43,532 nt of DNA from a virus. Made by a program: the position numbers and the translations under genes. The notes under the pieces were generated by a model. The model was given only the letters and a program-made list of their open reading frames with translations. It made no database searches and was not told the DNA's origin. Position 1 is the first letter of the stretch; every line of letters starts with the position of its first letter. Location of the stretch: the IMG/VR virus record IMGVR_UViG_3300033127_000097, positions 1 through 43,532 of that record; one strand, 5' to 3'. Positions 625 through 43,532 of the stretch are shown piece after piece.

Positions 625-661
625 CTATAAGTGGCTAATGCCACTATAGGGGAAATGTCAA
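625..661 (-). promoter_or_regulatory. Candidate leftward promoter -35 (TTGACA) with an adjacent palindromic operator-like site
   Basis: The minus strand reads TTGACA at 661-656. A near-perfect 25-bp palindrome ctataagtggctaatgccactatag (625-649, core AGTGGC-TAAT-GCCACT) lies just downstream. No convincing -10 hexamer was found. Confidence 0.3.
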
Positions 662-894
662 GCTGTCACGTAGTCCAAACGAATCAATTAGCTCGAGTCC
701 CCTAGGTCATATGAATCAATTGGAATAGTGACAATGAACTATCGACAAGGTGTGTGATTTGTGTATATGGAATGTCCAAAGGGGAGGGGGTAGTGCCGAC
801 TAGGGGCCGGCGACATGATGATAGATCGTCAGGCGCAAATTTGCATCGTTCTGTTTTCTTGACGTGAAGATACAACGAAAGGAGCCCCGCCACG

Positions 895-937
895 TGAAAC
901 ACAAAGAGCCCCGCCACCTGTAAAGGCGACGGGGCTC
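895..937 (-). terminator. Rho-independent terminator after the 958..1578 gene
   Basis: The minus-strand RNA has hairpin gagccccgtcgc / gtggcggggctc (937-906) followed by tttgtgttt. It lies 20 nt downstream of the stop at 958. Confidence 0.6.
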
Positions 938-957
938 CTGTTAATTAAGCGTTCGCC

Positions 958-1578
958 TCACTGGCCATAACCAAACTGGCCAGGTGGCTGCTGCTGCTGT
1001 GGCGGCTGTGGCGGCTGCACAGGTGCAGACTGCGCAGGTGGCTGCTGCATCGGCTGCGCAGGCTGCTGAGGTGCAGGCTGTGGATGCATCGGCTGTGCAA
1101 CCGGCTGCGGCGCAGGCTGCGGGTGCATCGGCTGCGCTGGTGCCTGCTGAACTGTCGACGGTGGTGCCTGTGGCGCCCCTGGAGGCGACCACGGACGGTC
1201 TGGCTCATTGTCGTCAGTGACGAATTGCTCGAGCTCAGGTGGCAGATCGCCGACCCACGCAAGTCGCTTGTACTTCTGACCACCACCACCTTCCACGAGG
1301 CTGTCCAGAAGGCGAACTCGCTGCCCGACAAGTGCCGTGCAAACGCCTGCAATGAAGTTCGCTGCCGGACTGTTGACCGAACCGATGTCGATCTTGCCCT
1401 TGTCCTGGTGCTTTCCGTGCTCCGGCGTGTAGTACAGCCAGATGTACTTACCTCGCTCCACCTGAACACCGGTGATAGTGCGAGAGTAGGTGTAGCGGGC
1501 GCCCGCTTCACGAACTCTCGATTCCCATTCTCCATATTCCCCGGCCATTCCAGCCTGAATCTGTTGCAATGTGTACAT
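958..1578 (-). CDS. Hypothetical protein with a repetitive Pro/Gln-rich C-terminal tail (206 aa)
   Basis: ATG at 1578 preceded by a purine-rich RBS (aaggaaaaggaatagga). The C-terminal ~80 aa are PQ-rich with repeated AQPMHPQPAPQ units. No fold recognised for the N-terminal domain. Confidence 0.6.
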   Translation of the reverse strand: MYTLQQIQAGMAGEYGEWESRVREAGARYTYSRTITGVQVERGKYIWLYYTPEHGKHQDKGKIDIGSVNSPAANFIAGVCTALVGQRVRLLDSLVEGGGGQKYKRLAWVGDLPPELEQFVTDDNEPDRPWSPPGAPQAPPSTVQQAPAQPMHPQPAPQPVAQPMHPQPAPQQPAQPMQQPPAQSAPVQPPQPPQQQQPPGQFGYGQ

Positions 1579-4299: not shown

Positions 4300-7200
4300 T
4301 GAGTCTTGATCCCTCACTTCACCAAGGCGCGATCGACTTCATCAACTGCCTCAACAAGCAGGTTGGTGAGGGATCGACTCTCGCGCAATCCATCGCATAC
4401 CTCCTCGAGAACTCGACGATCGTTCGCGACTGCATCCCAGATGCAGGTGCTGGCGGCATCGATCTCGACGGAGGTCCGTACTCGGTCACGTTTAACACGC
4501 CCAACGAGGGCGACATCGTGCTCACCGACATCACGTCGGGCGAGTCGGCGACCATCGAGATCCTGCCGTTGCTACAGAGCCTCATCGACAACATCGACTT
4601 CACGATCCTTGAGCCAGGCCAGTGCGAAGCGATCTTCCAGTGCATTCTGGACAACGGCACCGAAGCGCAATGGAACCAGCTCATCGACATCTTGTGCGCC
4701 ATCGAGGCTCCACCGGCTCCCGCCGGCATCGTCGGAGCGAGTGGCACGCTCCCCAACGGCGTGGACTACACGCTGTCGGTTGTCGGCCCTGGCTCCTTGA
4801 TTCAGTCGCCGTCCGGCGCGAGTCAGTGGGACCAGAACTCGATTCTCGAGATCCAGTTCTCTGAACCTGTCGACTTCGAGACGGTTACCCCAACAGACCT
4901 TTCCGGGCTGAACCCTGCCGTTCAGCAGTGGCACACGAGCGGAGGCGTGTCTTCGGGCATCACCACCGACTCGGCAGTCGTGCCCACGTACACGCCAGGA
5001 GCCGTCGATATCACCAGCAAGCTCGCGTTGGGCGTTGGGTCGGCGACCGACAACGGCTCGACCGGCGCGACTGGCGTTGCCGCGACCGACGACTGGGGAA
5101 CGCTCCTGTTCTTCGGCGTGACGTCGGTACAGATCCAGGGTGTGAGCACCGAGCTGATGCAGTTCCAGGTGACCATCGACGGAGGCAAAGCTCTTGCAGC
5201 CTGCCTGTTCGACGGTCTCACCGGTCCCGATTGCGTGACGCTGTTCAACTGCATCATCGAGAACGGCAGTCCGGCCCAGTTCACCGAGTTCATCGAGCAG
5301 GTCAACTGGTCACAGATGAGCGAAGAGGTCTGCACGGGCATCTTCCAGTGCATCATCCAAGAAGGCTTCACCACGCAGTTCAACGAGTTCCTCAACAAGA
5401 TGGACTTCTCTGAGCTGTCGACTGAGAACTGCCGAGCGATCTTCCAGTGCATCATCGACCTTCGAGATGAAGCGCTCACCAACGCGTTCTTCCAGACGTT
5501 CAACTTCAACCAGTTGACCAACGCTCAGGTGGTCGACATCCGAGACATGATCGGCCCGTTGTTCACGGTCAACGCTGGAACAACCGCAGATGCCGCCGAC
5601 GACGCGCTTGGTACTGCCGAGGTGACCTTCGGCGACATCGTTCACTTCTGGTCACCCGATGGCACTTTGCTGTTCGGAGTCACCGAAGGTTCGGCGATTG
5701 TCGCGGCAACGCTCAACCCGACTGTGCTGACCGGCATCCAGCACACAACCATCACCAACATCGACCTTCAGCCGACTGTGAACCCCAACGAGTTCACGGT
5801 CGAGATCGAATGGACCGATGGCGACGGCAACGCCCAGACCACGACCGATCCAACGCCAGTTACTTTCGGCTTCACGCTGACCGACAACACGTTGGCCGAC
5901 TACCTGGCCGCAGATCCAGCAGTGGACATCAATGTTCGTCAGACCTCGGCATTGTCGCTTCGTGAGGTCCTCCGGGTCCACGAAGGTGGCGGCAGCAACG
6001 TCGCCCTCGGTGTTAACTCAGGCATCGGGAACACTGGTTCAAACACACTGTTCTCCGGAAGCGCCGCGGGCCAGGGCAACACGGCCAACTCGGTTACGGG
6101 CATCGGCGTCAACGCACTGCGCGACTCGGTCAATTCGCAAGGCGGCTTCGCTCATGGCGTCAACGCCGCCCGCGATGCCAACTTGCTGTCGAACTTCCTG
6201 GCCGTTGGCCAGCGAGCGCTTCGTGGAGCGGGTGGCAACGCAAAGACCGCCCTTGGCGACTCGGCTGGCCAGAACTCGTCTGGAGACCATCAGGTCTTCC
6301 TTGGCGATGCGGCTGGTCAGTTCAACAGTGGCTTCAACGTGTTTGCCGCTGGACGGCAGGCAGCCCGTGGGAACGCCGGCTCCTCGGTGCTCGCACTGGG
6401 AGAGCTGGCAGGCTCCAGCAACGCAGTAAGCGGTGCGGTCATTCTCGGTGCAGCCGAGTTCCCGACCTACGCTGATCATGCCACTGCGTATGCAGCGCTG
6501 CCTGCCCCTTCAGCCAACGGCGTCTACGTCTACCGCATCGTCGGTGACGGCCGGGTTTACTGGCGGAGCACCAGCGTTGCCGACACGGCCAGCGGAGCCG
6601 GAACCGACGATCAGAACGCAACCGAAGTTCCGATCACTGACCCCAGCGACATCTTCACTGCCACCACGGTTGAGGGTGCGCTGGCAGAGCTGTTCAATCT
6701 CGTCAACGGTCTCCCTCCGGAGACCGATTCAGACGTGCAGACGGCTACGGCTCCGTTCACGACAACCAACGGCGTTGCCGTACTCGCTGGCGGCACGTTC
6801 GTTCAGCTCGACAATGGAGAGACTTGGGCCAGCCCGATCCCAACGGCTTCCCTGATCTCCATCGTGGACGCCAACGGCTACCTCGATGCCACCAACGTCG
6901 AGGATGCGCTGGCCGAGCTTGCAGCTCCATGCCCGCCTGTCCCCGGACTCGGTGTGTTGTCTGCGCTGTTCCAAGATTCGGGTGTGCTCCCCAATGGCGT
7001 GACCTACACGGCCACGTTCAGCAACGGAGTGACCTACCGGGCTTCGGACGGCACGATCGACTGGCCAGGCGGCACCGTCACGTTCGACTTCTCGGCTCCG
7101 GTCGACATGATCATTGCCGGTCAGTCGACGGCTCCGTTCACTCGGATCTCGCTTGGCAGCGCTGAGGTCATCTCGACCAACGGCGACCCGATGACGTACT

Positions 7201-7787: not shown

Positions 7788-9521
7788 ATGCCACTTGACC
7801 TCGCGTCCGAGCAGGACGCGATCGACTTCATCAATTCCCTTAACTGCACGGTGCCTGCAGGTTCGACTTTCGCGCAAGCGGTGGCGTACCTCATGCAGAC
7901 ACCTGGCATCGCTCAAGAGTGCCTACTCGAGGCGTTATCGGAAGTTGGGTTCGTCGGCCCCCCCGGCCCGGCTGGACCGCAGGGCCCGTCCGGCGACGAC
8001 GGCTTAGACGGCGCTCAGGGTCCGGTTGGCCCCGAAGGTCCGATTGGACCTGAGGGGCCTACGGGTCCAACCGGAGCAGACGGCCCGATTGGACCCGTCG
8101 GTCCACAGGGTGATCCTGGCCCACAGGGGCCAGCTGGTCCAGCTGGAGTCGATGGAGCTGACGGAGCTGATGGTGCCGATGGCGCTCAAGGAATCCAGGG
8201 GCCGCAAGGCCCAATCGGTCCAGCTGGCCCGGCCGGCGCAGATGGAGTCGACGGTCAGGACGGTGCCGATGGTGCTGATGGCGTTGACGGCGCAGATGGC
8301 CCGATTGGGCCAGCAGGGCCTGCCGGTGCGGACGGGGCAGATGGAGTGGACGGCGCTGACGGCGCAGATGGCGCTGTTGGCCCGCAGGGGCCAATAGGAC
8401 CGGCTGGCCCGCAAGGCCCAGCAGGAGCAGATGGAGCAGATGGAGCAGATGGAGCGCAGGGGCCTCAAGGTATTCCTGGCAGCGATGGTGCTGACGGGGT
8501 TGATGGCGCCGATGGCGCGACGGGCCCGCAAGGGCCACAAGGAGATCCCGGCGTGGCTGGACCCGTCGGTCCCCAAGGCCCAGCTGGAGCGGACGGGGCT
8601 GACGGAGCTGACGGGGCCGATGGAGTGGACGGGGCTGTTGGACCTCAGGGACCAGTAGGGCCGCAGGGTCCGGTTGGTCCGGAGGGCCCAGCACCCACAC
8701 TGAATACCACCGACCTCGTGCTCGAACGGACCTTCGCGGGCCAGATCGACGTTGACGCTCAGAATGTGAACGTTGGCGGCAACGTCATCACGGTCTCCGG
8801 TGGCACCTTCGACACGGGCTGGAGTCAGATTCCAGGGGGCTCACTTCAGTACGCCGGCGAGCCAGATCGCATCGAGATCACAGCGATGGTCGTCAACGAT
8901 GCACAGGCCACCAATCAGCGCATGGCGCCTGGCGTGAACTTGGAGAAGTCCAACAATGGTGGGCCTTTCGCTTTGGTTCCGGCAGCGCGGTCTCGCACTG
9001 GCTACATCCGGCTTCTTAACGGGCACCAGACATCCAGCAACCATGTGTCGTGGACCGACATGAACCCTGGCCTCAACCCGACCTACCGACTGGTAGCTGT
9101 GCAGGCAGGGGTTGGCGGGAACGTGCAGAGCGTTGGGGGCCACTTCACTGGTATCGCAACAGAACGAGAAACCGTCACGGTCTACGTGCCGCCGTCAGGG
9201 GCAACGTCGAGCGGGGTGCCCGCAGGCAACGACGTGGTGAATAACTTCGCCTCCGATCAGTTCAACTTCCAGCTTCAAGTCCAGAACGTCACCGCGGGCA
9301 CGCTCGACGTTGAGACCATCTGGAATAATCGTCCGTACAGCACGATTCCGAGCCTGGTTCTTCCAACTGGATGGAGCCACTCGGTCGTGCCGGACGGAGC
9401 GCTGTTTGACCATGTGTTTACGGGGCCCGCCCCATCATTCCAAAACATCACCATTAGCGGAGGCCAGACGGTCCCCGCTGGCGATGCCGACAACTCACAG
9501 ATTGAGAATTACATCGTATGA
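7788..9521 (+). CDS. Collagen-like fibre protein (577 aa)
   Basis: About 80 uninterrupted G-X-Y triplets are followed by a ~280-aa globular C-terminal domain. The N-terminal 50 aa ([19 protein letters not shown]...) are paralogous to the 4299 gene. Confidence 0.85.
7956..8688 (+). repeat. Collagen G-X-Y triplet repeat region (9-nt periodic [10 protein letters not shown]-type units)
   Basis: Gly occupies every third codon throughout, with many near-identical ggagcagat / ggagctgac units. Confidence 0.9.
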
Positions 9522-31349: not shown

Positions 31350-31701
31350 CCTTGCGTGGCTTAGGGGTGAGTGCGTCCTGCCAAATTTTCTCAGGTGGAC
31401 GAACGAGTGTAATAGCGCCTGTCCATTCGGGGGCCCACTGATTGACGGTGAACTCGTCTCTGTCGGGATAGTGGAATAGCACGAATGGCTCATCCCGGTC
31501 CCGCATCCAGGTGAGGAACATACGCAGCCATGGTGGCCACGGACTGCCGGCGGCAATAACATCGCAGTCCAGCAACCACTGGTAGGCGAGCAGGACACGC
31601 TTGTACTCCGGCGGCAGCCCCCGACCCGGCCCGACGTCGATGCCACCTTTGGCCATGCGAAACACCTGCGCCGCGTTCGGCATGCTGCCTGTGTAGCTCA
31701 A
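31339..31701 (-). CDS. Hypothetical Trp-rich protein (120 aa), last gene of the leftward operon
   Basis: The TTG start at 31701 overlaps the upstream TGA, with an alternative ATG at 31683. The 3' end overlaps the convergent giant gene by 11 nt. Confidence 0.5.
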   Translation of the reverse strand: MSYTGSMPNAAQVFRMAKGGIDVGPGRGLPPEYKRVLLAYQWLLDCDVIAAGSPWPPWLRMFLTWMRDRDEPFVLFHYPDRDEFTVNQWAPEWTGAITLVRPPEKIWQDALTPKPRKVSS

Positions 31702-33140
31702 CGTCCTGCCAGTCTCGTGAGCACCTTGGCCAAGATGCCAACGATTGCGGTGGGCGTGAAGTCTCTGAGTAGATCGAAGATGATGTCAATCTCGATGGGC
31801 TCGAACTCCTCCTCCGGCTCGTCTGGCTCCTCCGGCTCGTCTGGCTCCAGCATCTTGTCGAGGGATCGGGAGAAGTCAAGGCTGCCGTTGCAATGCATCA
31901 CCCCAAGATGCGAGTCCTCCAGGTTCGAAACCGGGGTGCCGCAGTTCGGGTAGGTGGCGTCGGATACCAGCTGACCATTGGTGCGGCTGACCGCCGCGAC
32001 CACGTCCCCCTTCTCGTGCACGGTCAGCACCTCGAAGAACACGTTCCGATCCCTGTTCATCACGTCATCGCCATCGTTAACGAAGCCCACTTCGATGTCG
32101 GTGCTGTACTCGAGGCCGAACCACGTGAATTTGGAGCCTGCCCGGCGAGCGATCATGCGACGTGCACATGGCTCTCCGTCAACGGCAAGCTCAAGTTCCT
32201 CTGAACCGGTGGCGCCACTAGCTGAGACACTGACGTCCATTGGCCCGTGTCCGCACACGACACCGTTCGGGACGTCGACCGGATACGCGGACTCGCGCAT
32301 TGGGTTCGCATCGTAGACCGCCATGTCGGCGTAGGTCAGTGTCGACTTCGTAGTGGGCTGCCACTCGGCAGTGTTGCCTCCCCAGTAGCTCTGGAAGAGC
32401 AGCGTGTCGATCTGCTGTTCAGCGTTTGGGCCGAGCCAAGCGAAGTCCATGCCGTCGCCATTGAAGAGCCTGCCATCCAAACGCAACACCACGTGGTCGT
32501 CGACCCACGCCTCGAAAAACTGGTTCTCACCCACGCCATAGCCAAGCGTCAAGGTGAACCATTCCCCGAGCGGGACATGCCAGAGACCCTCATCCCCAAT
32601 GCGTCCCATTTCGATGCCGTTGTTACGTCCGTCGTATTGGTACGGGTAAGGGTTGTCGATGCCCTCCTTGCGGAAATTGATCTGCCGTCCGTAACGGAGG
32701 TCGTCACGCACAGCGAGCTCGTAGTCGTAGGCGTACACGCCAATGGTGAAGGCGTCAGCCGGCTCCCAACTCCTACCTGCAGTGTTCACGCCTCGCCACA
32801 TGAGACGTCCGGAGAATCCGAACTCGTCGTGGTTGCCGCCGGTGTGCGGGCCGTTGACCTGACCGTTGCGCCCCGTCGACCCAAGACCCGGCATCTTGCC
32901 GCCCACCGAGTGGGCCTTGAGGTTCTTGCCGAAGTCAAAGTCCTTGGGGAAGAAGCACGAGTACTGCAGCCATAGCTCTTGGTGTCCTTCGGGAAGTGGC
33001 ACTTCGGCGCCTGAGGCGTTGTAGTCGTTGGGGACCGTGGTGTAGGTCATCGTCCCCTCGTCAGAGAAATCCCACTTAGCGAGATCGTTCCAGCGATGAT
33101 CGGGTGCGGGCCCGTTGAATTCGCGAATCGTGTTAGCCAT
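31698..33140 (-). CDS. Polysaccharide lyase (PL14 / Polysacc_lyase-like) with a C-terminal carbohydrate-binding-like module
   Basis: FDFGKN...VGGKMPGLGS...FGFSGRLMWRG...IGVYAYDY resembles the GGKLPGL...FSxRLMWR...Y.Y signature. The C-terminal part contains FVNDGDDVMNRDRNVFFEV, which looks CBM-like. This is followed by a PDEPEEPDEPEEE linker and an amphipathic tail. Strong AAGGAGAG RBS. Confidence 0.6.
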   Translation of the reverse strand: MANTIREFNGPAPDHRWNDLAKWDFSDEGTMTYTTVPNDYNASGAEVPLPEGHQELWLQYSCFFPKDFDFGKNLKAHSVGGKMPGLGSTGRNGQVNGPHTGGNHDEFGFSGRLMWRGVNTAGRSWEPADAFTIGVYAYDYELAVRDDLRYGRQINFRKEGIDNPYPYQYDGRNNGIEMGRIGDEGLWHVPLGEWFTLTLGYGVGENQFFEAWVDDHVVLRLDGRLFNGDGMDFAWLGPNAEQQIDTLLFQSYWGGNTAEWQPTTKSTLTYADMAVYDANPMRESAYPVDVPNGVVCGHGPMDVSVSASGATGSEELELAVDGEPCARRMIARRAGSKFTWFGLEYSTDIEVGFVNDGDDVMNRDRNVFFEVLTVHEKGDVVAAVSRTNGQLVSDATYPNCGTPVSNLEDSHLGVMHCNGSLDFSRSLDKMLEPDEPEEPDEPEEEFEPIEIDIIFDLLRDFTPTAIVGILAKVLTRLAGR

Positions 33141-34289: not shown

Positions 34290-34883
34290 CTACCTGTTTC
34301 TCCAGCATGTCCATGCTCCGAGCCCTTGCTCGGCTTCGACGATTGCTGACTGTGCTCCATTTAATACCGGGTTGGTGATCCAGTCGTCAAATTCCAGCCC
34401 AAACGTCGCATTGAATGTCGATCTCCACGATGGCCGATGGACCTGTGCTCGCCCCCAACTGTGGCCAAGTGTTCGATCGCCGTGTGCCTCATGCGGTTCG
34501 GCAACACCTCCGCTCTCGCACGGCAAGATCACCGTCGCGAACGCTGCCTCATTGGTGCCACCCATTGCCCGGTAGCCGGCGAACCACAGCTCATCCAACT
34601 GTGTCAACGTCAACTGCTCATCCTGCAGCCGCTCCTCGAGGCGGTCGATGATCCGGTTCTTCGCATAGTTGCGCCTCGCCAGCGTGTCCTTCCAGGCACG
34701 CAGCTTGTCACGCTGCTCGGTCACCAACTCGAGGCGAGCAGTGAGTGCGGTGACCTGTGCTTCAAGTTCAGCATCTCGAACCTCCCGCACGATCACCTCG
34801 TGCTCCACCGGTGCAGGAGCCGACATCACGGCCACACTCAGCGCCAAACTCAACGCCCCCACGATTCCACTCAGTCTTCCCAT
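34290..34883 (-). CDS. Secreted Rpf-like transglycosylase with signal peptide and coiled coil (197 aa)
   Basis: The GGAGG RBS sets the start at 34883. Signal-like N-terminus MGRLSGIVGALSLALSVAVMSAPAP, followed by a coiled coil. The C-terminal CESGG...SWGRAQV...SW...GLGAWTCW resembles the transglycosylase-like (Rpf) domain. Confidence 0.6.
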   Translation of the reverse strand: MGRLSGIVGALSLALSVAVMSAPAPVEHEVIVREVRDAELEAQVTALTARLELVTEQRDKLRAWKDTLARRNYAKNRIIDRLEERLQDEQLTLTQLDELWFAGYRAMGGTNEAAFATVILPCESGGVAEPHEAHGDRTLGHSWGRAQVHRPSWRSTFNATFGLEFDDWITNPVLNGAQSAIVEAEQGLGAWTCWRNR

Positions 34884-35152
34884 AGCTCTGCCTCCAAAAA
34901 TTCTGCGCGCAACTCCGTACGGATGCGCCTCTTCGCCCTTACCCACTGCTGCCGCACGGCAGTCTCGGTCGTACCTGTCTCCTCGGCGATTTCGGACCAT
35001 CGCCTTCCAGCTGCACGATAGTCAAGCAGCTGAAGATCGCGAGGCGGCAGGTTGCGCATGGCCTTCACAATGAACTGTGAGAGCTGCTCTCCTGCCGCCT
35101 CGATTACTTGCTCACGCTCCTGGCTCAGTGCCAGCAGGTCCGGATCTGTCAT
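34871..35152 (-). CDS. Sigma-70 region-4-like HTH protein (93 aa)
   Basis: LPPRDLQLLDYRAAGRRWSEIAEETGTTETAVRQQWVRAKRRIR matches the sigma70_r4 / LuxR-type HTH pattern. No region 2 is present. The start is uncertain (35152 or 35188). Confidence 0.55.
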   Translation of the reverse strand: MTDPDLLALSQEREQVIEAAGEQLSQFIVKAMRNLPPRDLQLLDYRAAGRRWSEIAEETGTTETAVRQQWVRAKRRIRTELRAEFLEAELWED

Positions 35153-35471
35153 CGATGGCCTCCACGATGGCAGCGAACGTGGCGACATCCATCGTCACCC
35201 ATTGCGCTGCCGGGTCGGCCACATTCTTACGCTTGTGAACCACAACCGGTAGCTCATCTTGCCCTGCCTGCTCAACGGCCTGACCCCACCACTCAGGCAG
35301 CGCCAATTTGGCGTGGTTCTTTATCTCGATGGCGAACCCGCCAACGACAGCGTCGGCCCCGCTAAAGCCCGATGCCGCCGGATTCGGGATCGTCCGGTTC
35401 AGAGTCTTGGACAGGTGGTTCCGGATCACCCTCTCGAACTTGGCCCCCTTCTCCCTCTGCATCTTGCCCAT
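35112..35471 (-). CDS. Holliday junction resolvase-like PD-(D/E)XK nuclease (Hjc-type)
   Basis: KGAKFERVIRNHL...GADAVVGGFAIEIKNH carries the Hjc-type D...E-x-K pattern. Third-position GC is 18/20 in this frame at 35401-35460. Confidence 0.6.
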   Translation of the reverse strand: MGKMQREKGAKFERVIRNHLSKTLNRTIPNPAASGFSGADAVVGGFAIEIKNHAKLALPEWWGQAVEQAGQDELPVVVHKRKNVADPAAQWVTMDVATFAAIVEAIDDRSGPAGTEPGA

Positions 35472-35862: not shown

Positions 35863-36823
35863 TACTTTCCTCCTTGGCCTCAGCAAAGGCCCTATCGATC
35901 ATCGACCGGCACACGTCCAACGAAATGAAATCCGGCTTCTGGTCAAGTTGATTCTCCCAAACAGAGACCATCAGAGCGTGCGCCTCATCAAGGTTGTACT
36001 GCGGGTGCGCTGCCAAGAAGTTGGCAAGGTTCCACAGATTGTTGTTCCGACCATCGACCATCCCACCCTCGTGGTAGATCATCTGCCCCTTCACGATGTT
36101 GTGCGCGTCCTGAGTCGCACTAGAAACCTTGACCCTCTTGCCCTCAATCTTCACCTCGCGTCGGGGCGGCGGCTTCTCGTGATATCTCTCAGCCAGCTCT
36201 CGCACTCGAGCTGACGAAACCTGATGCGCTTCGGCGTAGTCAAGGAACTGTTCGAATGAAAGAATCCTGCCGTCGTCGTCGACGCACACCATCCGGTTAT
36301 GCGGCACCCATTTGGCATGATACGGCAGACGTACATAGTTGCCGAGGTTCTTTGAATGGTCAGTGCCGACACGTTGCTTTGGGTTGATCTCCTGACACTC
36401 CAGCGCAGCAGCCTCGTCAACGAGCAGGAGTGCCTTACGCAAGGTGTCCGCCGGCACCGGCAGGTCAAGGAACAGCCACACGTGTCGGCCTTCGCCTGAC
36501 CTCGAGATCTCAATGACGCCATTGAGGCCAGCCCGACGCAGACAGGTCAGTGCGTACTGAGCGTCGACGGCGGGGTCTCCTCGCTTCGAATCGAAATCGA
36601 AGCATCCCCACCATGAATTGCCGTCCTCATCGGCGGCGTAACATCCGACCCCCTCGGCGGTCGGGTCCGTCAGGTGCGCCTGCAGGTGGCCAGGCAGCTG
36701 CCTTGGCTCGATCACAACACTACGCTCACGCCCCTTGAGCTTGGGCTCCGACAACCCAATCCGGTGCTCACGGTTCACGAACAGCCGATAGAACCGCTTG
36801 TAGTTCTCATTCAGCTTGTCCAT
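35843..36823 (-). CDS. Primase-polymerase (AEP family) with a PriCT-like C-terminal domain
   Basis: WWGCFDFDSK (metal-binding DxD) and SRSGEGRHVWLF (sGxGxH) are present. The C-terminal GRNNNLWNLANFL resembles a PriCT domain. AAGGAG RBS. Confidence 0.65.
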   Translation of the reverse strand: MDKLNENYKRFYRLFVNREHRIGLSEPKLKGRERSVVIEPRQLPGHLQAHLTDPTAEGVGCYAADEDGNSWWGCFDFDSKRGDPAVDAQYALTCLRRAGLNGVIEISRSGEGRHVWLFLDLPVPADTLRKALLLVDEAAALECQEINPKQRVGTDHSKNLGNYVRLPYHAKWVPHNRMVCVDDDGRILSFEQFLDYAEAHQVSSARVRELAERYHEKPPPRREVKIEGKRVKVSSATQDAHNIVKGQMIYHEGGMVDGRNNNLWNLANFLAAHPQYNLDEAHALMVSVWENQLDQKPDFISLDVCRSMIDRAFAEAKEESNAQDIH

Positions 36824-37784
36824 CGAAGTCTCCTTCCATTGGGTGCATCATCTCTTGCACCAGCGGCCACGGCTTCATAGCCACCGTTGACGCTTCCCCA
36901 ATGCGATGCACATGAGGGCAAAGGCTCAAGTTGTTCCACTGCTTCAACGCCTTCTCCTTGCTTACCGGGCCACCGAGGTAGGCCCGACCCTGTTTGGCCT
37001 TCATGATGTTGAACAGGATCTCATTGTCCTCATGCGTGCGATCACTAAAGCGCCACACACCAATCGCGCAGCCATCGATCGCTGCCTCGCCTCCCCCGAA
37101 CAATTCGTTGAGATCTGGAGCCGACGGTCGAGTACTACTAGGGCGGCGCAGCTGCGAGATCAGACACCAAACCGACTTCTTGAACTGGCGACACAGCCTC
37201 TTGTGCTCCCGCATATGCACCAGACCGGACACGTTGGAGTCGCCGCCCTCAATCTCAAGGCAGCCAATGTAATCGAACACGATGAGCTCGGCCGGCGCTC
37301 CCCACATGCGCTCCGCCTGATCCACCACAGATGCCACGTCGTCAATGCTCGCCCCGAGCAGGTCGGTATTAGGGATGTGTAACTGCGGGAACCTATCCAT
37401 CACCGTGGTCTCAAGACTCTTCGGCGTGTACTGCGACATCGGATGCTTGAACTCCCGCTTGAGATCAAACGTGCGACGCTTCAACACTGAGGCTGCCAGA
37501 TCAAACATAACGCTCGAGCGATCTTCGTCGGCATGCAGGTAAAGGATTCGCCGGTCGTGGTTCCTTTGAATCATGGTCCTGGTGAGCAACGTCTTGCCGT
37601 GACCAGTGCGGCCGGCAATGACGTTAAGCACACCAGGATGCATGCCTCCCTCAAGGAACTCGTCAAGGAACGGAACGCCAACCGGAAGCGGGTCGCCTTG
37701 CCGTAGCAGCTCCTCGAACTCGCGACGATACGGGCCGTTGCCCTCCCGAATGATCGAGTCGAACTTGTCGAACTTCGAACTCAC
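36807..37784 (-). CDS. DnaB-family / RecA-fold replicative helicase (325 aa)
   Basis: Walker A AGRTGHGKT and Walker B ELIVFDYIG are present, with DnaB C-terminal-domain-like spacing. GTGA-coupled GTG start. Confidence 0.7.
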   Translation of the reverse strand: MSSKFDKFDSIIREGNGPYRREFEELLRQGDPLPVGVPFLDEFLEGGMHPGVLNVIAGRTGHGKTLLTRTMIQRNHDRRILYLHADEDRSSVMFDLAASVLKRRTFDLKREFKHPMSQYTPKSLETTVMDRFPQLHIPNTDLLGASIDDVASVVDQAERMWGAPAELIVFDYIGCLEIEGGDSNVSGLVHMREHKRLCRQFKKSVWCLISQLRRPSSTRPSAPDLNELFGGGEAAIDGCAIGVWRFSDRTHEDNEILFNIMKAKQGRAYLGGPVSKEKALKQWNNLSLCPHVHRIGEASTVAMKPWPLVQEMMHPMEGDFDGQAE

Positions 37785-38479
37785 GTCGGCTTATTGATCC
37801 CAGCTTCCACCAGGTGAAGGTTGGCGACAGCCCATGCCGGTGGAGGTCCGAACTTACTGTGCAAGTAGAGGGTCTGTGGACGCGGCGAGCCCAGCACGCC
37901 CTTCTCAGGAAACCGCTCGTGGCTCACAGCTTTGAAGTCGGGGGCGTCTGTCGACTTGAGGGCGCTGCGAAGATCAATCCAGGCGTCGGGCTCTGTCAGC
38001 AGCATGTACCAGCACTGGTCGACCCAGTCGTTGAGCTCTTCTGGTGGCGGCAGCGGCACTCCCGGCTGACCAGTCTGCAGATCCGGCTCGCCGCTCGGAG
38101 GTACGACATGGTTGCCCAGATGATTCGCCGCCGCCTGCTGAGCAGGTGACGCTGCAGTCGCGAGCGACTGGTCAACCACCGTAGGCATCGTCGCCGGCGG
38201 CGCTGGTATCGGCTGTGGTGGTGCAGCCACCGGTGCGGCGCCAGGGAAGATTTCGACCACCGTCTTCGTGACAGGGTCCTGATTGAACGCCAGCCCAAGT
38301 TCGGTGAAGATCAGTGCCTTAATCTCCCGGTACTGCTCACGGGCAGCCTCGATGGCATCATCAGTTGACGAGCTCAGCGGCACCGAGTAGCGAACAGTTA
38401 TGCCGGCGCTGGCCTTACCGTTCACTTCGACGTCGACCTGCCGTGCGAAGTTGACCTCGAATTCCATTTCATCACTCAT
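37781..38479 (-). CDS. Hypothetical two-domain protein with a Pro-rich linker (232 aa)
   Basis: I chose the internal ATG at 38479, which has a GGAG RBS and overlaps the upstream stop by 8 nt. Confidence 0.55.
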   Translation of the reverse strand: MSDEMEFEVNFARQVDVEVNGKASAGITVRYSVPLSSSTDDAIEAAREQYREIKALIFTELGLAFNQDPVTKTVVEIFPGAAPVAAPPQPIPAPPATMPTVVDQSLATAASPAQQAAANHLGNHVVPPSGEPDLQTGQPGVPLPPPEELNDWVDQCWYMLLTEPDAWIDLRSALKSTDAPDFKAVSHERFPEKGVLGSPRPQTLYLHSKFGPPPAWAVANLHLVEAGINKPT

Positions 38480-38807
38480 TGGGCTCTCCAGTGATCGGGT
38501 TCGGGGCCATCTCCGGCTCGTTCTCATCGGCAGCAGGCTCATAGTTGACGTCAAGACGCAGCCACATCACGCCGTCCGACACGCGCGCCTCGAACTCGCC
38601 GGGCTCAGTGCCAGTCAGTCGACCCGCATTGATGCGGGACGCCAGGCTCGACATGCGGCCACGTGCCTCGTCGGTTTCACCTCGCAACGCAACCCAGTCA
38701 CCCTTCTCCTTCCGGGCCATGTCGAGCAGGGGTGTGTAGTCAGTACGCTTGCGTTTCGCCGGCGGGTCCGGCACTTTGCCTCCCGTCAGGATTGAGAACT
38801 CACTCAT
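38472..38807 (-). CDS. Hypothetical protein (111 aa)
   Basis: ATG at 38807, with an alternative GTG at 38816. It overlaps the nuclease gene stop. Confidence 0.5.
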   Translation of the reverse strand: MSEFSILTGGKVPDPPAKRKRTDYTPLLDMARKEKGDWVALRGETDEARGRMSSLASRINAGRLTGTEPGEFEARVSDGVMWLRLDVNYEPAADENEPEMAPNPITGEPNE

Positions 38808-39636
38808 CTGTTTCACCTTTCCGCATCCAATCGATGCTGTACTTGCGATTCGCGTGATGCTCGCCCATGCATTTGCCAGCGGCGAACGTCTCGCACCACT
38901 TCGGAGAGCAATGCCAGTCGGTTGGCCTCATTGGCCAACGCGGCAGCTCAGCCTCGATAAGGAACGCCAACGACAACGCCTGCGTCACCACCCCATCGAA
39001 GTCACCCTGGTCTCTCGTGACCGTGGCCATTTCCATCGGGTCGCCGCTCTTGGGGAAACGCACGTACGTGAACTCAGGGATCTCTCCGGTGGCTTCACGT
39101 ATGGCCATTGCGTAGATCGTTGGCTGCAGCGAGTACCGCTGCATCTTCCAATGATTCTCCTTGTAGGACTCGGCTGACGTCTTCCAGTCCCACAGCATGC
39201 CGGGCGTGTGATAATCGGGCGTCCCCTGGAACATGATCGTGCGAAATTGATCCTCGTAGGCGACGAAACGGAATGGCTTCTCAATATCGCCGCCGAGAGG
39301 GAAGTGGTGACGCTTGCTCCAGAACGTGGCGACAGTCTTGCGCACGATGAACACTGCCTGGTGAACGTTCTCCACCTGGAGCATGCGGATCTCATGCCAA
39401 TGTTCTTGCACGTACTGCACTGCGATGTCGACGAGCTCGGCCTCGGTCTTGTTGCCGTCAGCCTTTAGGTACTCCTCGATCGACAGGTGTGTGGCCGTAC
39501 CGATGAGCGTCGCGTCGCTGCCCTCAGAGAGCGGCGGGCGCGTGCGCAGCTTTTCGGGACACATGCGTGCCTCGTTCAGATCCGACTGGTGAAAGACGTG
39601 CGTCCAATAGCCGTTACTGTCTTGCGTAGATCTCAT
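38800..39636 (-). CDS. Cas4/RecB-family PD-(D/E)XK exonuclease with a Cys cluster
   Basis: GTPDY...LWDWKTS (D...D-x-K) and QPTIYAMA (QxxxY) are present. An N-terminal Cys (RMCPEK) plus C-terminal CSPKWCETFAAGKC suggest an Fe-S cluster. I chose the ATG at 39636. Confidence 0.7.
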   Translation of the reverse strand: MRSTQDSNGYWTHVFHQSDLNEARMCPEKLRTRPPLSEGSDATLIGTATHLSIEEYLKADGNKTEAELVDIAVQYVQEHWHEIRMLQVENVHQAVFIVRKTVATFWSKRHHFPLGGDIEKPFRFVAYEDQFRTIMFQGTPDYHTPGMLWDWKTSAESYKENHWKMQRYSLQPTIYAMAIREATGEIPEFTYVRFPKSGDPMEMATVTRDQGDFDGVVTQALSLAFLIEAELPRWPMRPTDWHCSPKWCETFAAGKCMGEHHANRKYSIDWMRKGETDE

Positions 39637-39702
39637 TGGTACCTGTTTGCTGATTGCTGGCGTCAGCAACCTAGCAACGTGCAGCGCGATTGCAAAACGG
39701 AG

Positions 39703-39757
39703 GAGACCCACCCTCAGGCGGCAGCGGCGCATTGCCTTATGCCTGAGAGCGGGTCTC
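39703..39757 (-). terminator. 16-bp hairpin (two G-U pairs on the minus-strand RNA) followed by CUCCGUUUUGC
   Basis: The minus strand reads gagacccgctctcagg, a 23-nt loop, then cctgagggtgggtctc. On the plus strand the same positions are A-C mismatches. Confidence 0.4.
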
Positions 39758-39831
39758 GGCGACAGGCGAATCGGCGGAAATTCGTACCTGTCAAGATCAA
39801 GCAGTACCGCGTCCTGCGATCACTGCCAAGT

Positions 39832-40092
39832 TCAGCCCCGCAATTTCTTGAACCTCTTCAAGACATCGTTCACCACACCTGAAGGGATGCCCCAATGAAG
39901 ACGCGCCTCCTCCAGGCGAGCAGGAGTGTCGGCGTGAAGCTCCAAGATGGCGTCGGTCATCTGACTTCGAGCCAACGTCAGGTCACGGTACGCAAGCCCC
40001 AGCCTGGTGCGTGCGTCAGCTTCCGAACGAGACGATGTCTCCGGAATCTCCCGAAGTTCCTGACGTCTCGGATACTCCATGTGCTCGGCCAT
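39832..40092 (-). CDS. Hypothetical protein (86 aa)
   Basis: A GGAGAGGGAAG RBS precedes ATG 40092. Confidence 0.5.
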   Translation of the reverse strand: MAEHMEYPRRQELREIPETSSRSEADARTRLGLAYRDLTLARSQMTDAILELHADTPARLEEARLHWGIPSGVVNDVLKRFKKLRG

Positions 40093-40546
40093 TGCTTCCC
40101 TCTCCGACGATTCCCATAGCGATCTCCCGACACAAGTCTAGAAACAGCGCCACCGGCAAATCCTTGGGTGCGACCTCCACCCTTGACACTGCCTGCTGAA
40201 CGGCAAGCTCCACGTCGGCTACGCTCAACGCAGACGGCGCGGGTCCCTCTTCACTCGCCCGAGGTTGGGGCTCGCGCCGTCGCAGATCCTCGATCGCTGA
40301 CACGATGTCGTCAGCCGATCCGCTGTCAGGCTCCAACGCCTCCACGATCCGTGCCCGGACCGTGTGCTGATAGCCGACCTCAGCCATCACCGCCTGACAC
40401 GACGCGTACAGCTCGTTCTCCTCGGCCTTCTGGTTCGCCGACGACATCGCCTGAAAAACTTCGATCCAAGATTCCCTGTCCAAGAACTCAAAGAATCTCA
40501 CTTGAGGGTTGATGCGCGTGTCGTCGTCTGCCGGTATCGGGATCAT
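40016..40546 (-). CDS. Hypothetical acidic protein (176 aa)
   Basis: I chose the ATG at 40546 (MIPIPADDD...). The 3' end overlaps the next gene by 77 nt. Confidence 0.5.
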   Translation of the reverse strand: MIPIPADDDTRINPQVRFFEFLDRESWIEVFQAMSSANQKAEENELYASCQAVMAEVGYQHTVRARIVEALEPDSGSADDIVSAIEDLRRREPQPRASEEGPAPSALSVADVELAVQQAVSRVEVAPKDLPVALFLDLCREIAMGIVGEGSNGRAHGVSETSGTSGDSGDIVSFGS

Positions 40547-40623
40547 GGCCAAGACCCTAGGACGCGGCGAACCGCCAGCCAACCGAGAAGGAAACAGGTA
40601 CGAAACCCCTCGATGGCTGACGG

Positions 40624-40640
40624 TTCAAAGTCCCTTTGAA
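40624..40640. promoter_or_regulatory. 17-bp perfect palindrome TTCAAAG-TCC-CTTTGAA (operator-like)
   Basis: It lies in the 96-bp intergenic gap upstream of the 40546 gene. A further half-site CCCTTTGA is repeated at 40658-40665. Confidence 0.3.
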
Positions 40641-40678
40641 TGTGCGTTCGGCGGGGACCCTTTGAGGCTAGGCCGTCA

Positions 40679-40963
40679 CTACCCTCCGTGCAAACGCTCG
40701 AAAAGCATTCCTTTCAGCAAAGACAAGCCTTGCACTAGCGTCCCCACGCCCCGAGGGGTGAGAACATACTTGACGCCAGACTCGGCCAGCATTTGGACCT
40801 GGTCGTCGGTCATGCCGTAACTGATGATGCCTCCCGCTTCCACCAGCACCTCGTCGGGTATCAGGGTCAATTGGACCTCGAACGTCTCCGGAGAGGTGTC
40901 AACAATCTCCACGGCCACAGCCGAGATCGCGATCGGCTCCTCCTCGATCAGCTCGTCGCTCAT
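40679..40963 (-). CDS. Hypothetical acidic protein (94 aa)
   Basis: ATGA-coupled to the ku stop. Confidence 0.5.
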   Translation of the reverse strand: MSDELIEEEPIAISAVAVEIVDTSPETFEVQLTLIPDEVLVEAGGIISYGMTDDQVQMLAESGVKYVLTPRGVGTLVQGLSLLKGMLFERLHGG

Positions 40964-41730
40964 GCCGCGCCCTTGGCTTGAGCGATCTGCGCCTCGAGCT
41001 GTGCCATCAGATCCCCCGGCGACGACTCGGCCTCAACCTCCTCGACCACCGGCTCCTTGCCCTCGAGCTTCCGGGCGAGCATTGAGAGCAGCGCATCTCG
41101 ATGAGTGTTCTCGAAGCTGGCATGCTCCCACTCGATCGTCATGCCCATCACCATGTCGTCAGCCATCTCGAGCATCTGGTCGGTTGGCTCCGGCCACGAC
41201 TGCACAGCCGGCTCCCGAACCTCGTCGAACCAGTACAGCTCATGCACGTAGACCCTGGTCGTCGTTGCCCGCAAGACGACGAGGCGCTCGTGCCCGGCCT
41301 TGACGTAGCTGCCCACGCCAACAAGTCCACGGTCTTCGAGCACACGCGCCAGAAGGGTCAGCCCAAGCTCGCCACCCTCACCAGGACCAACTTGATGGGC
41401 ACTCGTGTACAGCGAAGGGTCGATCTCGTGTTTGGGCACGAAGCCAACGAGTTCGATATGCGACGTCTTCAGCGGCTGCACAAGAGCGATCTCATCGGCG
41501 GTCACGTCGACCGTTGAACCGTCGCCGAACTCGTAACGCTTCATCACGTCGGCCTTGCGATCGAGCTCGTCGCCGGTGACCGATGAGACGTACGGCATCC
41601 GGATCCTCTCGCCCGTTGCCTTCTCGATTGTCGAGAACGAAACCTTGTCTTCTCGTGCGTCCACATACATTTTGATGGGGACGTTAAGCATGCCCAGAGA
41701 GATACTCCCGGTCCATGTTGCGCGTGGCAT
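40960..41730 (-). CDS. ku: Ku-like DNA end-binding protein (257 aa)
   Basis: The N-terminus MPRATWTGSISLGMLNVPIKMY aligns by eye with bacterial Ku (MRAIWTGSIAFGLVNVPVKVY). Length and the following blocks (ELVGFVP, DPSLY) are also typical. Start set at ATG 41730, which has an RBS. Confidence 0.9.
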   Translation of the reverse strand: MPRATWTGSISLGMLNVPIKMYVDAREDKVSFSTIEKATGERIRMPYVSSVTGDELDRKADVMKRYEFGDGSTVDVTADEIALVQPLKTSHIELVGFVPKHEIDPSLYTSAHQVGPGEGGELGLTLLARVLEDRGLVGVGSYVKAGHERLVVLRATTTRVYVHELYWFDEVREPAVQSWPEPTDQMLEMADDMVMGMTIEWEHASFENTHRDALLSMLARKLEGKEPVVEEVEAESSPGDLMAQLEAQIAQAKGAA

Positions 41731-41750
41731 TTCATTACCTCTTTCTGTTT

Positions 41751-41806
41751 GGGGTGCAAGTCGCACCGCGAAGCCCACCGACTGCAAGCCGATGGGCAAC
41801 GCGCTA
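41751..41806 (-). promoter_or_regulatory. Conserved intercistronic RNA module, copy A (long hairpin + GGTGC-N5-GCACC hairpin)
   Basis: About 90% identical to copy B. It begins at the TAG stop of the upstream gene and ends about 20 nt before the ku RBS. Confidence 0.6.
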
Positions 41807-42076
41807 CGACTCGATTGGCAACGATTCACCTTGATCCACGTACTTGATGTAAAGATCGTGGTGTCTATCCCCTTGGTCGTCGTCGCCGGTGGCGTGCCCA
41901 TCCAGCCATAGCCTGCGAACATCATCGTCGATGACAGCCATTAGGCGTAGCATCGGTTCGATTTCTGAGCACGCCATCTTTGGGCCAATATCAGCAGCCA
42001 ACCATGGTTCATTCATTGCCTTCACAAACTCGTACGCGGCAGCAACGATCAGTGCCTCATTGTTAGCGCCGCTCAC
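41804..42076 (-). CDS. Hypothetical protein (90 aa)
   Basis: The GTG at 42076 is GTGA-coupled to the clamp-like gene stop. This is the C-terminal part of ORF 41804..42355. Confidence 0.45.
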   Translation of the reverse strand: MSGANNEALIVAAAYEFVKAMNEPWLAADIGPKMACSEIEPMLRLMAVIDDDVRRLWLDGHATGDDDQGDRHHDLYIKYVDQGESLPIES

Positions 42077-42804
42077 CTGGACAGCTCCTTGCCGCGGTCC
42101 ACGTAATCCAGAATCGAGTCCATGTCCTTCATTGCCATCGGCATGGCCAAACCCTCGGTGCGACCGATGCGAAACGAGATCGGGTCTCTCACGCCCGTCT
42201 GACGAAACACGACGGGCGCATCGATCTCGTCCTGTGCAGGCGTAAGCGCTGTGCCGCCGTCCATCTTGGCCAAACGTCCAAGCATCCGCGGCGAAAGCAT
42301 GAAACCCTCTGCCGACCCTTCCTTGTGGTAGCTCCTCGTGAACAGGCTGCGCCACATTGGGAAGTTATCGACATCACCAAGCTGCGCACGATCGAACGAC
42401 GGAGCGACACCCTTATAACCCTCGTCACCCTTGGCCCATGACTCGACACCGATCCAGTCGGCCTCCACAATCACCTTCACCGGCTGGTCACGTTCGGCCC
42501 TCTTCGGCTTGAGCATCTTCACCAGCTTCTCGACATCGATGGCATGAAGGCCGAACGTTTGACGGCCAGCCGGCTGCGGACCACTGCTCGCTACCTTTAG
42601 CCAGTGATCGGCTTCGCCGACCACGGTCACCGTCATCAGATAGCTGTCGGTCGAAACCACAACCCAATCGCCGGACTTGCTGTTGATGACGAACAACGCC
42701 ACGTCAAGCGCCGCGCGCACGCCACGATCTCGCTTAGGCGGCAGCGACTGCAACGCGTTGTGAAGTGCCCGATGGACATCCTCACGTGTACCTGTTAATT
42801 CCAT
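42073..42804 (-). CDS. DnaN-like sliding clamp-related protein (243 aa)
   Basis: WVVVSTDSYLM, DNFPMWRSLF and FMLSPRMLGRLAK resemble the beta-clamp blocks (atDg.RLa, FPdY..vi, f.n..yL.d.lk). It is shorter than a cellular DnaN. Confidence 0.5.
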   Translation of the reverse strand: MELTGTREDVHRALHNALQSLPPKRDRGVRAALDVALFVINSKSGDWVVVSTDSYLMTVTVVGEADHWLKVASSGPQPAGRQTFGLHAIDVEKLVKMLKPKRAERDQPVKVIVEADWIGVESWAKGDEGYKGVAPSFDRAQLGDVDNFPMWRSLFTRSYHKEGSAEGFMLSPRMLGRLAKMDGGTALTPAQDEIDAPVVFRQTGVRDPISFRIGRTEGLAMPMAMKDMDSILDYVDRGKELSR

Positions 42805-42822
42805 GATTGCCTTTCATATTTG

Positions 42823-42902
42823 GGGTGCCAGATGCACCCGAAAGCGCTCCGTCTCGGCCGGTCGGATGGGGCTATGAGGAGACGGAGCGCAATCGGCTAT
42901 AG
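42823..42902 (-). promoter_or_regulatory. Intercistronic RNA module, copy C (12-bp hairpin + GGGTGC-N5-GCACCC hairpin)
   Basis: On the minus strand gcgctccgtctc / gagacggagcgc forms the stem (42890-42844). It is followed by tttc, the short hairpin (42839-42823), ccaaatatgaaagg and the ATG at 42804. Confidence 0.5.
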
Positions 42903-43268
42903 CTAGCTCTTACCCCAACCGCTGACGAGCTCGTCAGCAAGCTCACGCGCTGCAAAGTGTCCCCTGGAGTGGCTGCGCCCGACACTCACCCAATCACCTA
43001 GCGTCTCGCTCCACACGTTGCACTCAGCGTCAGAGGTCAATCCGCTATTGCTGAGCTTGACGCCAGTTACGGTCTCTTCATTGAACGTGATAGCGAGACC
43101 GAAAATCCGTTCAAGCTCAGGCGATGGCCGATCATTCTCAGCCTCGGCGATGTCTTGAAGCGCATACTCCAAGACCAGCTTCAAGTTCAGACCCTTCTCA
43201 GCGGCATCCTTAACCATCGCGCTGATGTGCATAGCCGAGAGCGTCCCCTCATCGATGTACTCACCCAT
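42903..43268 (-). CDS. Hypothetical protein (121 aa)
   Basis: The internal ATG at 43268 overlaps the upstream stop by 8 nt. Confidence 0.5.
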   Translation of the reverse strand: MGEYIDEGTLSAMHISAMVKDAAEKGLNLKLVLEYALQDIAEAENDRPSPELERIFGLAITFNEETVTGVKLSNSGLTSDAECNVWSETLGDWVSVGRSHSRGHFAARELADELVSGWGKS

Positions 43269-43371
43269 TGGACCGAGCCTCAAACTCGAAGAACTCCATC
43301 GTCTCGTCGTCGAAAAAGTGGTGACCAATGGAGCTATTAAGACGCTCCAAGTCGTCGAATGTGTATCTCAT
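43261..43371 (-). CDS. Very small ORF (36 aa), possibly the N-terminal fragment of a split gene
   Basis: GAAGGA RBS then ATG at 43371. Peptide MRYTFDDLERLNSSIGHHFFDDETMEFFEFEARSNG. Confidence 0.3.
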   Translation of the reverse strand: MRYTFDDLERLNSSIGHHFFDDETMEFFEFEARSNG

Positions 43372-43478
43372 ATTTGTTTCCTTCTGTCGTTGGTGGATCG
43401 GATACCACCGCGAGCGCTCACCATTGAAGACCAACGGTGAGCGACGCGCTAGAGCCGATCGGTCCCCTAGTTGCAGTA

Positions 43479-43532
43479 GGGTGCTAGGTCGCACCGCGAA
43501 GCCCACCGACCTAAGCCGATGAGCAACGCGCT
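43479..43532 (-). promoter_or_regulatory. Conserved intercistronic RNA module, copy B (continues into 1-34 across the junction)
   Basis: Same architecture as copy A. It begins at the TAG stop (32-34) of the 32..160 gene. Confidence 0.6.
43500..43532. repeat. Terminal direct repeat, identical to 1-33
   Basis: Exact 33-nt match to the start of the window. Confidence 0.9.

Follow-up and report, generated by a model that had tools for sequence, protein, structure and literature searches.

A strand-specific family of structured intercistronic RNA modules, predicted to act in mRNA processing or stability, in an uncultured podovirus-like phage

The IMG/VR virus record IMGVR_UViG_3300033127_000097 was analysed over its full length of 43,532 nt (positions 1 to 43,532, here called the window). 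Its leftward operon carries four copies (A, B, C, and D) of a structured intercistronic RNA module, all on the minus strand and within 1.8 kb. An earlier note on this DNA had listed three copies. A, B, and C are present as it described. A repeat scan of the window lists the repeat family D5, and three of the four window matches of the motif GGTGC-N5/6-GCACC (0.41 expected) are modules; the fourth copy, D, had been missed. We consider the modules to be a real, structured, and strand-specific RNA family within a known class, that of intercistronic signals for processing and stability, the mechanism being predicted. A function at the RNA level is highly probable. Most likely, the modules would be cis-acting “punctuation marks” in an early mRNA, i.e. 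RNA-level elements of processing or stability, and RNase III is proposed, tentatively, as the specific enzyme.

On the transcribed strand, the order of the elements is the same in all copies, i.e. a stop codon, a lower stem, an internal loop, an upper stem, an apical loop, and a short hairpin. The stop codon stands 0–6 nt ahead of the 4-bp lower stem (CGCG/CGCG or CCGA/UCGG), and A, B, and C begin at, or a few nt past, the TAG stop of a leftward gene, in agreement with the earlier description. The internal loop, which had been overlooked, is UU/UU in A, B, and C and U/CU in D. The upper stems of the window copies have 10–12 bp, and the apical loops comprise 3–23 nt. The short hairpin, GUGN-loop(5–8)-NCAC, abuts the lower stem with a 0-nt junction in every copy. 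Thereafter, A, C, and D have a tail (CCCAAA or CAAC) and an A-rich leader with a purine-rich ribosome binding site (RBS); in the case of B, copy D comes next.

Module A spans positions 41753–41806 (all modules are given on the minus strand). Its TAG (41806–41804) precedes the lower stem CGCG (41803–41800, paired with 41770–41767), the U·U internal loop (41799–41798 and 41772–41771), an upper stem of 11 bp with 2 G·U pairs (41797–41787 with 41783–41773), the loop 41786–41784, and the short hairpin GGUGC-GACUU-GCACC (41767–41753). In module C (42824–42905), the TAG is found at 42905–42903, the lower stem CCGA (42896–42893) pairs with UCGG (42841–42838), and the UU loop (42892–42891 and 42843–42842) leads into a 12-bp upper stem (42890–42879 with 42855–42844), an apical loop of 23 nt, and the short hairpin (42838–42824).

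Module B lies at the end of the record. Bases 1–33 of the window are an exact duplicate of 43500–43532, i.e. the overlap of a circular assembly with a true genome length of 43,499 bp, so that features at the right end resume at base 34. The earlier note had missed this overlap and let B run on into positions 1–34, of which only base 34 adds to the module (43480–43532 plus base 34). The TAG of B thus consists of base 34 and 43532–43531, followed by the lower stem (43530–43527 with 43498–43495), the UU doublets (43526–43525 and 43500–43499), an upper stem of 10 bp with 3 G·U pairs (43524–43515 with 43510–43501), the loop 43514–43511, and the short hairpin (43495–43480).

The approximately 110 nt of further structured leader that had been described downstream of B turned out to be module D (43393–43451). 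It starts with a relic TAG (43451–43449) and comprises the lower stem CGCG (43448–43445 with 43412–43409), an internal loop of U (43444) and CU (43414–43413), an upper stem (43443–43433 with 43425–43415), the loop 43432–43426, and the short hairpin GUGG-UAUCCGAU-CCAC (43408–43393), followed by CAACGACAGAAGGA and an ATG at 43371. The stems of D differ from those of A, yet the differences compensate each other (CGCUCACCGUU/AAUGGUGAGCG and GUGG/CCAC). Because its TAG ends no open reading frame (ORF), D resembles a module whose upstream gene was lost. The spacer between B and D (43452–43479, minus strand) has a small hairpin, CCCUA-N7-UAGGG (43481–43465), and the palindrome CCGAUCGG.

The claim that base pairing works on the minus strand only was borne out for two of the copies. 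The minus-strand RNA of A has a predicted folding energy of −36.7 kcal/mol (z −4.2), versus −24.2 kcal/mol (z −0.7) for the plus strand, and the respective values for B are −36.1 (z −2.8) and −22.5 kcal/mol (z −0.2), so that the plus strands of both fold no better than shuffled sequence. In contrast, C and D are perfectly Watson–Crick paired and hence fold on both strands. A and B are ~90% identical, and their stem difference, C versus U, exchanges a G-C pair for a G-U pair and keeps the pairing, as had been noted. The short hairpin of A and B depends on the folding context: it is predicted when other flanks are used, but some isolated minimum-energy folds lengthen the lower stem at its cost.

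The anatomy was coded as a strict structural descriptor, and 2.1 Mb of unrelated viral strand sequence served as the background. The descriptor has four matches in the window, all on the minus strand, and seven in the background, which are reduced to one if UU/UU is required. A looser descriptor gave 0.13 matches per randomised window. An exact-pattern scan of IMG/VR for CGCGGTGC-N4-8-GCACCCC returned more than 119 single chance matches, which were used only as a background set of 1.07 Mb. At the gathering score, no Rfam family matches the window or the related assembly L123 (see below), the Rfam matches for 41700–43532 were at chance level (E of at least 1.6), and ARAGORN found nothing in the window.

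A small clade of relatives was recovered with Ku and with a primase profile, i.e. L123, L130/131, L132, L133–135, L136, and L137 (the L-numbers are labels of the metagenomic assemblies that were compared with the window). Their replication genes are syntenic with those of the window (37–67% identity), and the conservation does not extend to the small genes upstream of Ku. Querying IMG/VR with the 243-aa protein encoded between C and A, Ku, the helicase, and a primase alignment yielded no relatives, and a metagenome scan with the primase alignment yielded only relatives of ~30% identity, which were not used further. Two distant relatives, L130 and L133, to which the primase had led, have the same architecture with unrelated stems. 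L130, the primase of which is 51% identical, has a full module, TAG-ACCU-UU-CGUCAGAACUC-GUC-GAGUUCUGGCG-UU-AGGU-GUGAC-GAUU-GUCAC. The module of L133 is situated upstream of Ku and reads CGGG-UU-GGACUGGGG-(17 nt)-CCCCAGUCC-UU-CCCG-GUGC-UACACGC-GCAC-CCCAAAACAGAAAG.

The seven instances contain 131 stem pairs, of which 120 are Watson–Crick and 11 are G·U; neither A·C nor any other mismatch occurs. The divergent stems were misaligned when the modules were aligned with MAFFT (A3, A5); therefore, a covariance model was dropped, and the structural descriptor and a normalised stem-only alignment, with the loops as placeholders, were used instead. In this alignment, 100% of the cells pair, both sides change at 14 of the 17 pairs, and 0 of 500 shuffles reached this level of pairing and covariation; because the structure guided the manual alignment, and a pairing-based descriptor had served to pick the instances in L130 and L133, these statistics are inflated and describe the pattern rather than prove it. 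The UU/UU loop is kept between the 4-bp lower stem and an upper stem of 9–12 bp, while all stem sequences turn over. The short hairpin has an invariant GUG/CAC and a covarying fourth pair (C-G, G-C, A-U), and its loops vary in sequence and length (4–8 nt; GACUU, GACCUA, AUCUG, UAUCCGAU, GAUU, and UACACGC). A natural variant, the first B copy of the near-identical assembly L120, carries one more G-C to G-U change that preserves the pairing. The ratio of G·U to A·C (11:0), the compensatory changes, and the architecture in L130 and L133 uphold the earlier proposal of an intercistronic module that is conserved at the RNA level.

RNase III takes ~20–22 bp of double-helical RNA, and internal loops confine its cleavage to one strand, leaving a stabilising 3′ hairpin; the majority of T7 transcripts carry RNase III sites (PMC3867540, PMC6212723). 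In the mechanism that we tentatively favour, the transcript would be the polycistronic early mRNA that a novel podovirus-like phage makes from its leftward operon. The short hairpin (4–5 bp, GUGN/NCAC) would stack coaxially on the lower stem, as the invariant 0-nt junction allows, resulting in a rod of 19–23 layers or roughly two helical turns, with the U·U near the centre, where RNase III cuts. Host RNase III, a double-strand-specific endonuclease, would dock on this rod and place a nick at the U·U loop or next to it. The long hairpin would remain on the upstream cistron as a 3′ cap against exonucleases, while the downstream cistron would begin with the short GUG hairpin as a 5′ cap, ahead of the A-rich leader and the RBS. 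The operon would thus be split into separate messages, each with its own stability and translation.

For comparison, the T7 intergenic regions with the sites R0.3, R0.5, R1, R1.1, and R1.3 (positions of Dunn and Studier 1983) were folded. In these folds, an internal loop separates a 9–13-bp upper stem from a short lower stem, which in R0.5 starts within the stop codon. The modules share this plan, including G·U pairs, as well as the intercistronic location between a stop codon and the next RBS of a polycistronic phage transcript, and several paralogous copies per operon. In contrast to the T7 signals, they have the extra abutting GUG hairpin and GC-rich stems that are completely divergent between copies. 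Of the roles listed in the earlier note, the RNase III-type one therefore fits best in its plan, and no similarity at the sequence level accompanies it.

Several points weigh against RNase III. The lower stem has just 4 bp, and the two-turn length depends on the assumed coaxial stack, i.e. the long hairpin alone accounts for 16–18 layers, and 19–23 are reached only if the short hairpin stacks. The internal loop is symmetric (UU/UU), whereas that of the T7 sites is asymmetric (4x5), and the upper stem of the T7 signals (AAGGUC...GGCCUU) has no counterpart in the modules. The hand-fitting of the alignment and the selection of instances described above belong here as well. Lastly, other types of hairpins are found at the equivalent sites of L123, L132 (a 15-bp hairpin), and L136 (an interrupted 21-bp hairpin plus a pair of 6-bp hairpins), so that a generic requirement for a stable hairpin could suffice.

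The main rival accordingly involves no endonuclease. The modules could be passive structural insulators that block 3′-to-5′ exonucleases, bar the loading of Rho or RNase E by holding the untranslated spacer in a folded state, or uncouple the translation of the cistrons, similar to repetitive extragenic palindromic (REP) elements or intercistronic stabiliser hairpins. Such a barrier against decay or Rho is unlikely overall but carries appreciable weight. It would account for the constant position among relatives with varying hairpin types, for the very stable GC-rich stems (−33 to −43 kcal/mol), and for the location directly after stop codons, and a stable GC-rich hairpin after a stop can protect the upstream mRNA. 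However, thermodynamics alone does not explain why the UU/UU loop is retained while the stems turn over, and the invariant GUG/CAC and the constant 0-nt junction of the lower stem and the short hairpin are left unexplained as well. REP elements are sequence families spread genome-wide in both orientations, whereas the modules are operon-specific, have a single orientation and two parts, and conserve an internal loop.

The equivalent positions in L123 are occupied by three intercistronic minihelices (971–1005, 1219–1253, and 2220–2254) that consist of a contiguous tRNA acceptor stem and T-arm, with the sequence GGUCGGU-AGCGG-UUCGAUU-CCGCU-ACUGCCC-A. They have the T-loop UUCGAUU or UUCGACU, G1-C72, A73, and C74, and weak Rfam matches to mascRNA and the tmRNA T-arm. 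A minihelix of this type (7-bp acceptor, 5-bp T-stem, T-loop UUCRANN) occurs three times in L123 and is absent from the 2.1 Mb background and from the window. The L123-type pattern had no match in IMG/VR and one chance match, inside a coding region of a Synechococcus metagenome-assembled genome. Each minihelix is followed by the conserved hairpin CCUAGCUNNACGGCURGG-CAAC, which is also found in L130 (3293–3314). An attP-type tRNA fragment was rejected as their source, given three copies with covarying T-stems and a 5′ acceptor strand of their own. The minihelices are possible substrates of RNase P or RNase Z; their likeness to tRNA punctuation, t-elements, and mascRNA-type signals (PMC1920247, PMC11143913) suggests that the family as a whole may mark processing sites. 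The window copies differ from such tRNA-like signals in that they lack a T-loop and do not form 12-bp minihelices.

An extension of the RNA-processing reading, which we regard as improbable, would be an interchangeable punctuation system with marks after the stop of each early orphan gene that are read by the host nucleases for tRNA and rRNA processing. Two kinds of marks would exist, i.e. U·U helices for RNase III (window, L130, L133) and minihelices for RNase P and/or RNase Z (L123). Such a system would be the phage counterpart of mitochondrial tRNA punctuation, and the marks would double as recombination joints that mobilise gene cassettes.

Somewhat less probable still is a role as binding sites of a phage or host protein that reads the GUG hairpin together with the U·U loop. 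Such a protein might regulate translation, act as an antiterminator of the boxB/N or put type, or be a hairpin-specific endonuclease of the Cas6/Csy4 type. The conservation of UU/UU and GUG/CAC amid variable stems would be in line with protein recognition, as would the size of the short hairpin (4–5 bp with a 4–8-nt loop), which is like that of boxB or Cas6f hairpins, and its location immediately upstream of the RBS. However, its loops are not conserved in sequence or length, in contrast to lambda nut (boxA/boxB) or HK022 put sites. There are also four to five copies per operon (four in that of the window) rather than one site per early promoter, no boxA-like element was seen, and the annotated proteins include no candidate RNA-binding protein.

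A function at the DNA level, or none for the phage, has a slight probability. The modules would then be repressor operators, single-stranded DNA hairpins for replication or recombination, or repeats that spread like REP elements or miniature inverted-repeat transposable elements (MITEs). The near-identity of A and B, the operator-like GGTGC/GCACC palindrome, and the tolerance of DNA hairpins for G·T pairs agree with this explanation, as does a cassette that is flanked by two B copies in a population variant of the phage. The assemblies L120 and L121 (44,375 and 44,289 bp) are 100% identical to the window over >7 kb and carry an extra cassette of 735 bp (L120 4516–5327; at the window 55/43478 junction). 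It contains a 52-aa gene paralogous to window 500–635, a 131-aa gene, and a short ORF, and it is bounded by a 77-nt direct repeat, i.e. the last 22 coding nt of the 42-aa gene that ends at module B plus the module itself.

In contrast, the half-sites of the palindrome are separated by 4–8 nt, and its fourth pair covaries, as would be expected for a hairpin rather than for a dimer binding site, which disfavours the operator that the earlier note had considered. Recent transposition would not explain an architecture that is kept in distant relatives without sequence identity, and the single orientation, the exact fit between stop codon and RBS, and the G·U pairs without any A·C on the transcribed strand likewise argue against a DNA element.

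The tandem of B and D resembles a scar left by the loss of a gene cassette. Together, the cassette indel, the orphan module D, and the unconserved genes between the modules suggest that the modules also provide homology joints at which cassettes are gained and lost, like the promoter early stem-loops (PeSLs) of T4-type phages. PeSLs are also repeated intergenic modules between a stop codon and a Shine–Dalgarno sequence, contain a stem-loop with G·T pairs, are clustered where small orphan early genes form a hypervariable region, and bound cassettes, by two copies, by which near-identical genomes differ (PMC2839356, PMC4122927). However, they are defined by a strong sigma-70 promoter (PMC2839356), and their stem-loops terminate, whereas the modules conserve RNA structure rather than promoter sequence. 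A promoter scan detected no sigma-70 promoter-like site in any of the modules, and a promoter inside them was thus rejected.

Another comparison is with the start-associated sequences (SAS) and extended SAS (ESAS) of Cluster K mycobacteriophages, which also combine an inverted repeat and a conserved element just upstream of start codons (PMC3203893), occur at a subset of non-structural genes in one orientation, and, like the modules, have no assigned function. The 13-bp SAS (GGGATAGGAGCCC) and the ESAS half-sites are conserved in sequence (PMC3203893), whereas the module stems are free to vary, and conservation is confined to the architecture, the UU/UU loop, and GUG/CAC. Neither the 13-bp SAS nor the 17-bp ESAS inverted repeats were found in the module sequences.

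Least of all do the modules seem to be terminators or attenuators without a U-tract that grade expression along the early operon by partial stops or pauses, a role offered earlier that GC-rich hairpins right after stop codons and the terminating or attenuating PeSL stem-loops of T4-type phages (PMC2839356) might favour, given that a terminator scan found no T-run at any module on either strand (the stems are followed by CGCGGUG... and CCCAAAC...), that textbook hairpin plus U-tract terminators exist elsewhere (window 939–904 and L123, L130, and L132), and that the essential replication genes for Ku, nuclease, helicase, and primase lie downstream of all four modules with no new promoter detected.

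The genome of the window has a G+C content of 59.8%. The plus strand at ~3.6–31.3 kb encodes, among others, a T4-type terminase, a P22/SU10-like portal, and an SU10-like capsid protein. Several public assemblies contain the same phage; the DNA assemblies with the phage or its relatives are ERZ27234785, ERZ23486806, SRR8814430, and JGI 3300001264. No DNA match to 36000–43499 was found among cultured phages. The primase alignment had no match in the GTDB genomes and thus gave no prophage or host clue.

All modules are located in the leftward operon, which continues with Ku, a PD-(D/E)XK nuclease, a DnaB-like helicase, and a primase of the archaeo-eukaryotic (AEP) type. It is preceded by a canonical intrinsic terminator (904–939, minus strand; a 16-bp GC-rich stem, then UUUGUGUUU), which is situated upstream of the promoter region that probably drives the operon. 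This terminator is part of a non-coding region of 390 bp (570–960, minus strand), in which it is followed by an AT-richer stretch with TTGACA and the 27-bp palindrome CCTATAGTGGCATTAGCCACTTATAGG; the module-bearing operon probably has its regulated promoter/operator here. The stop codon of the 42-aa gene (32–160, minus strand) opens module B. Two genes lie between D and C (42903–43371, minus strand), i.e. a 36-aa ORF (43261–43371) that overlaps a 121-aa gene (42903–43268) by ATGGGTGA. The ORF has a below-cutoff match to DUF7447 (22.4 bits versus a cutoff of 24.1), which spans the first 28 positions (the N-terminus) of the 89-aa profile, and the two may be a split or frameshifted gene. C and A enclose two small early genes (41804–42804, minus strand), encoding 243 aa (42073–42804) and 90 aa (41804–42076); for the 243-aa protein, no homologue except itself was found.

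Directly 3′ of module A are the leader and RBS of the Ku gene (41731–41752, minus strand; CCAAACAGAAAGAGGUAAUGAA), with the ATG at 41730. The gene for the Ku-like DNA end-binding protein (40960–41730, minus strand) lies downstream of module A and is the first gene that is conserved with the relatives. L133 and L123 have its leader motif, CCAAAACAGAAAG / CUAAACAGAGGAG, ahead of Ku as well. The gene downstream of Ku is followed, on the minus strand, by a long hairpin of ~20 bp with several G·U pairs (40544–40681). The hairpins of the relatives at the equivalent site have a conserved pyrimidine loop, GUUCUUUCCUGUCC (L132 ~5735–5790, L133 ~2745–2800), and in L132 and L123 a U-tract comes next; the window hairpin is therefore probably a terminator or attenuator that lost its U-tract.

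Further features were observed outside of the module region. Downstream of the primase, the clade conserves a protein of ~100 aa (window 34871–35188, minus strand; L130 11638–11913; L137 5218–5508). In L130 and L137, it has weak Pfam matches to sigma-70 region 4, the likeness of the window ORF was judged solely by eye, and the protein may be a phage-encoded transcription factor for late genes. Within a minus-strand ORF at ~945–1578, four tandem 39-nt repeats (986–1150) are part of the coding region and point to a protein segment that is repetitive and rich in Ala, Pro, and Gln. Long repeats with a 9-nt period of the GGN GNN GNN type (7947–8689, plus strand, in ORF 7788–9521) indicate a collagen-like Gly-X-Y domain, which is probably part of a tail fibre. 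A 480-aa protein (31698–33140, minus strand) contains a polysaccharide lyase family 14 domain and a CBM60 module, and L130 encodes a cellulase at the equivalent place. Virion-associated depolymerases are the probable identity of both, a hint that the host either has a polysaccharide capsule or is associated with algae.

The modules represent a structured RNA motif new to Rfam, the architecture of which persists across phages without shared stem sequence, with a tandem U·U loop central in a composite helix of roughly two turns as the distinctive conserved feature. If they are RNase III sites, mRNA punctuation in the style of T7 would extend to unrelated uncultured podovirus-like phages, and the module would offer a compact and portable element for the insulation of cistrons in synthetic operons. 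The hypervariable orphan genes and the cassette indel link RNA processing signals to the modular shuffling of genes, as has been proposed for PeSLs. The tRNA-like minihelices of L123 are a hint that more than one kind of host nuclease can be enlisted for one and the same task. If it is true that the minihelices and the U·U helices are alternative nuclease-recruiting marks, the importance of the finding would be considerably greater.

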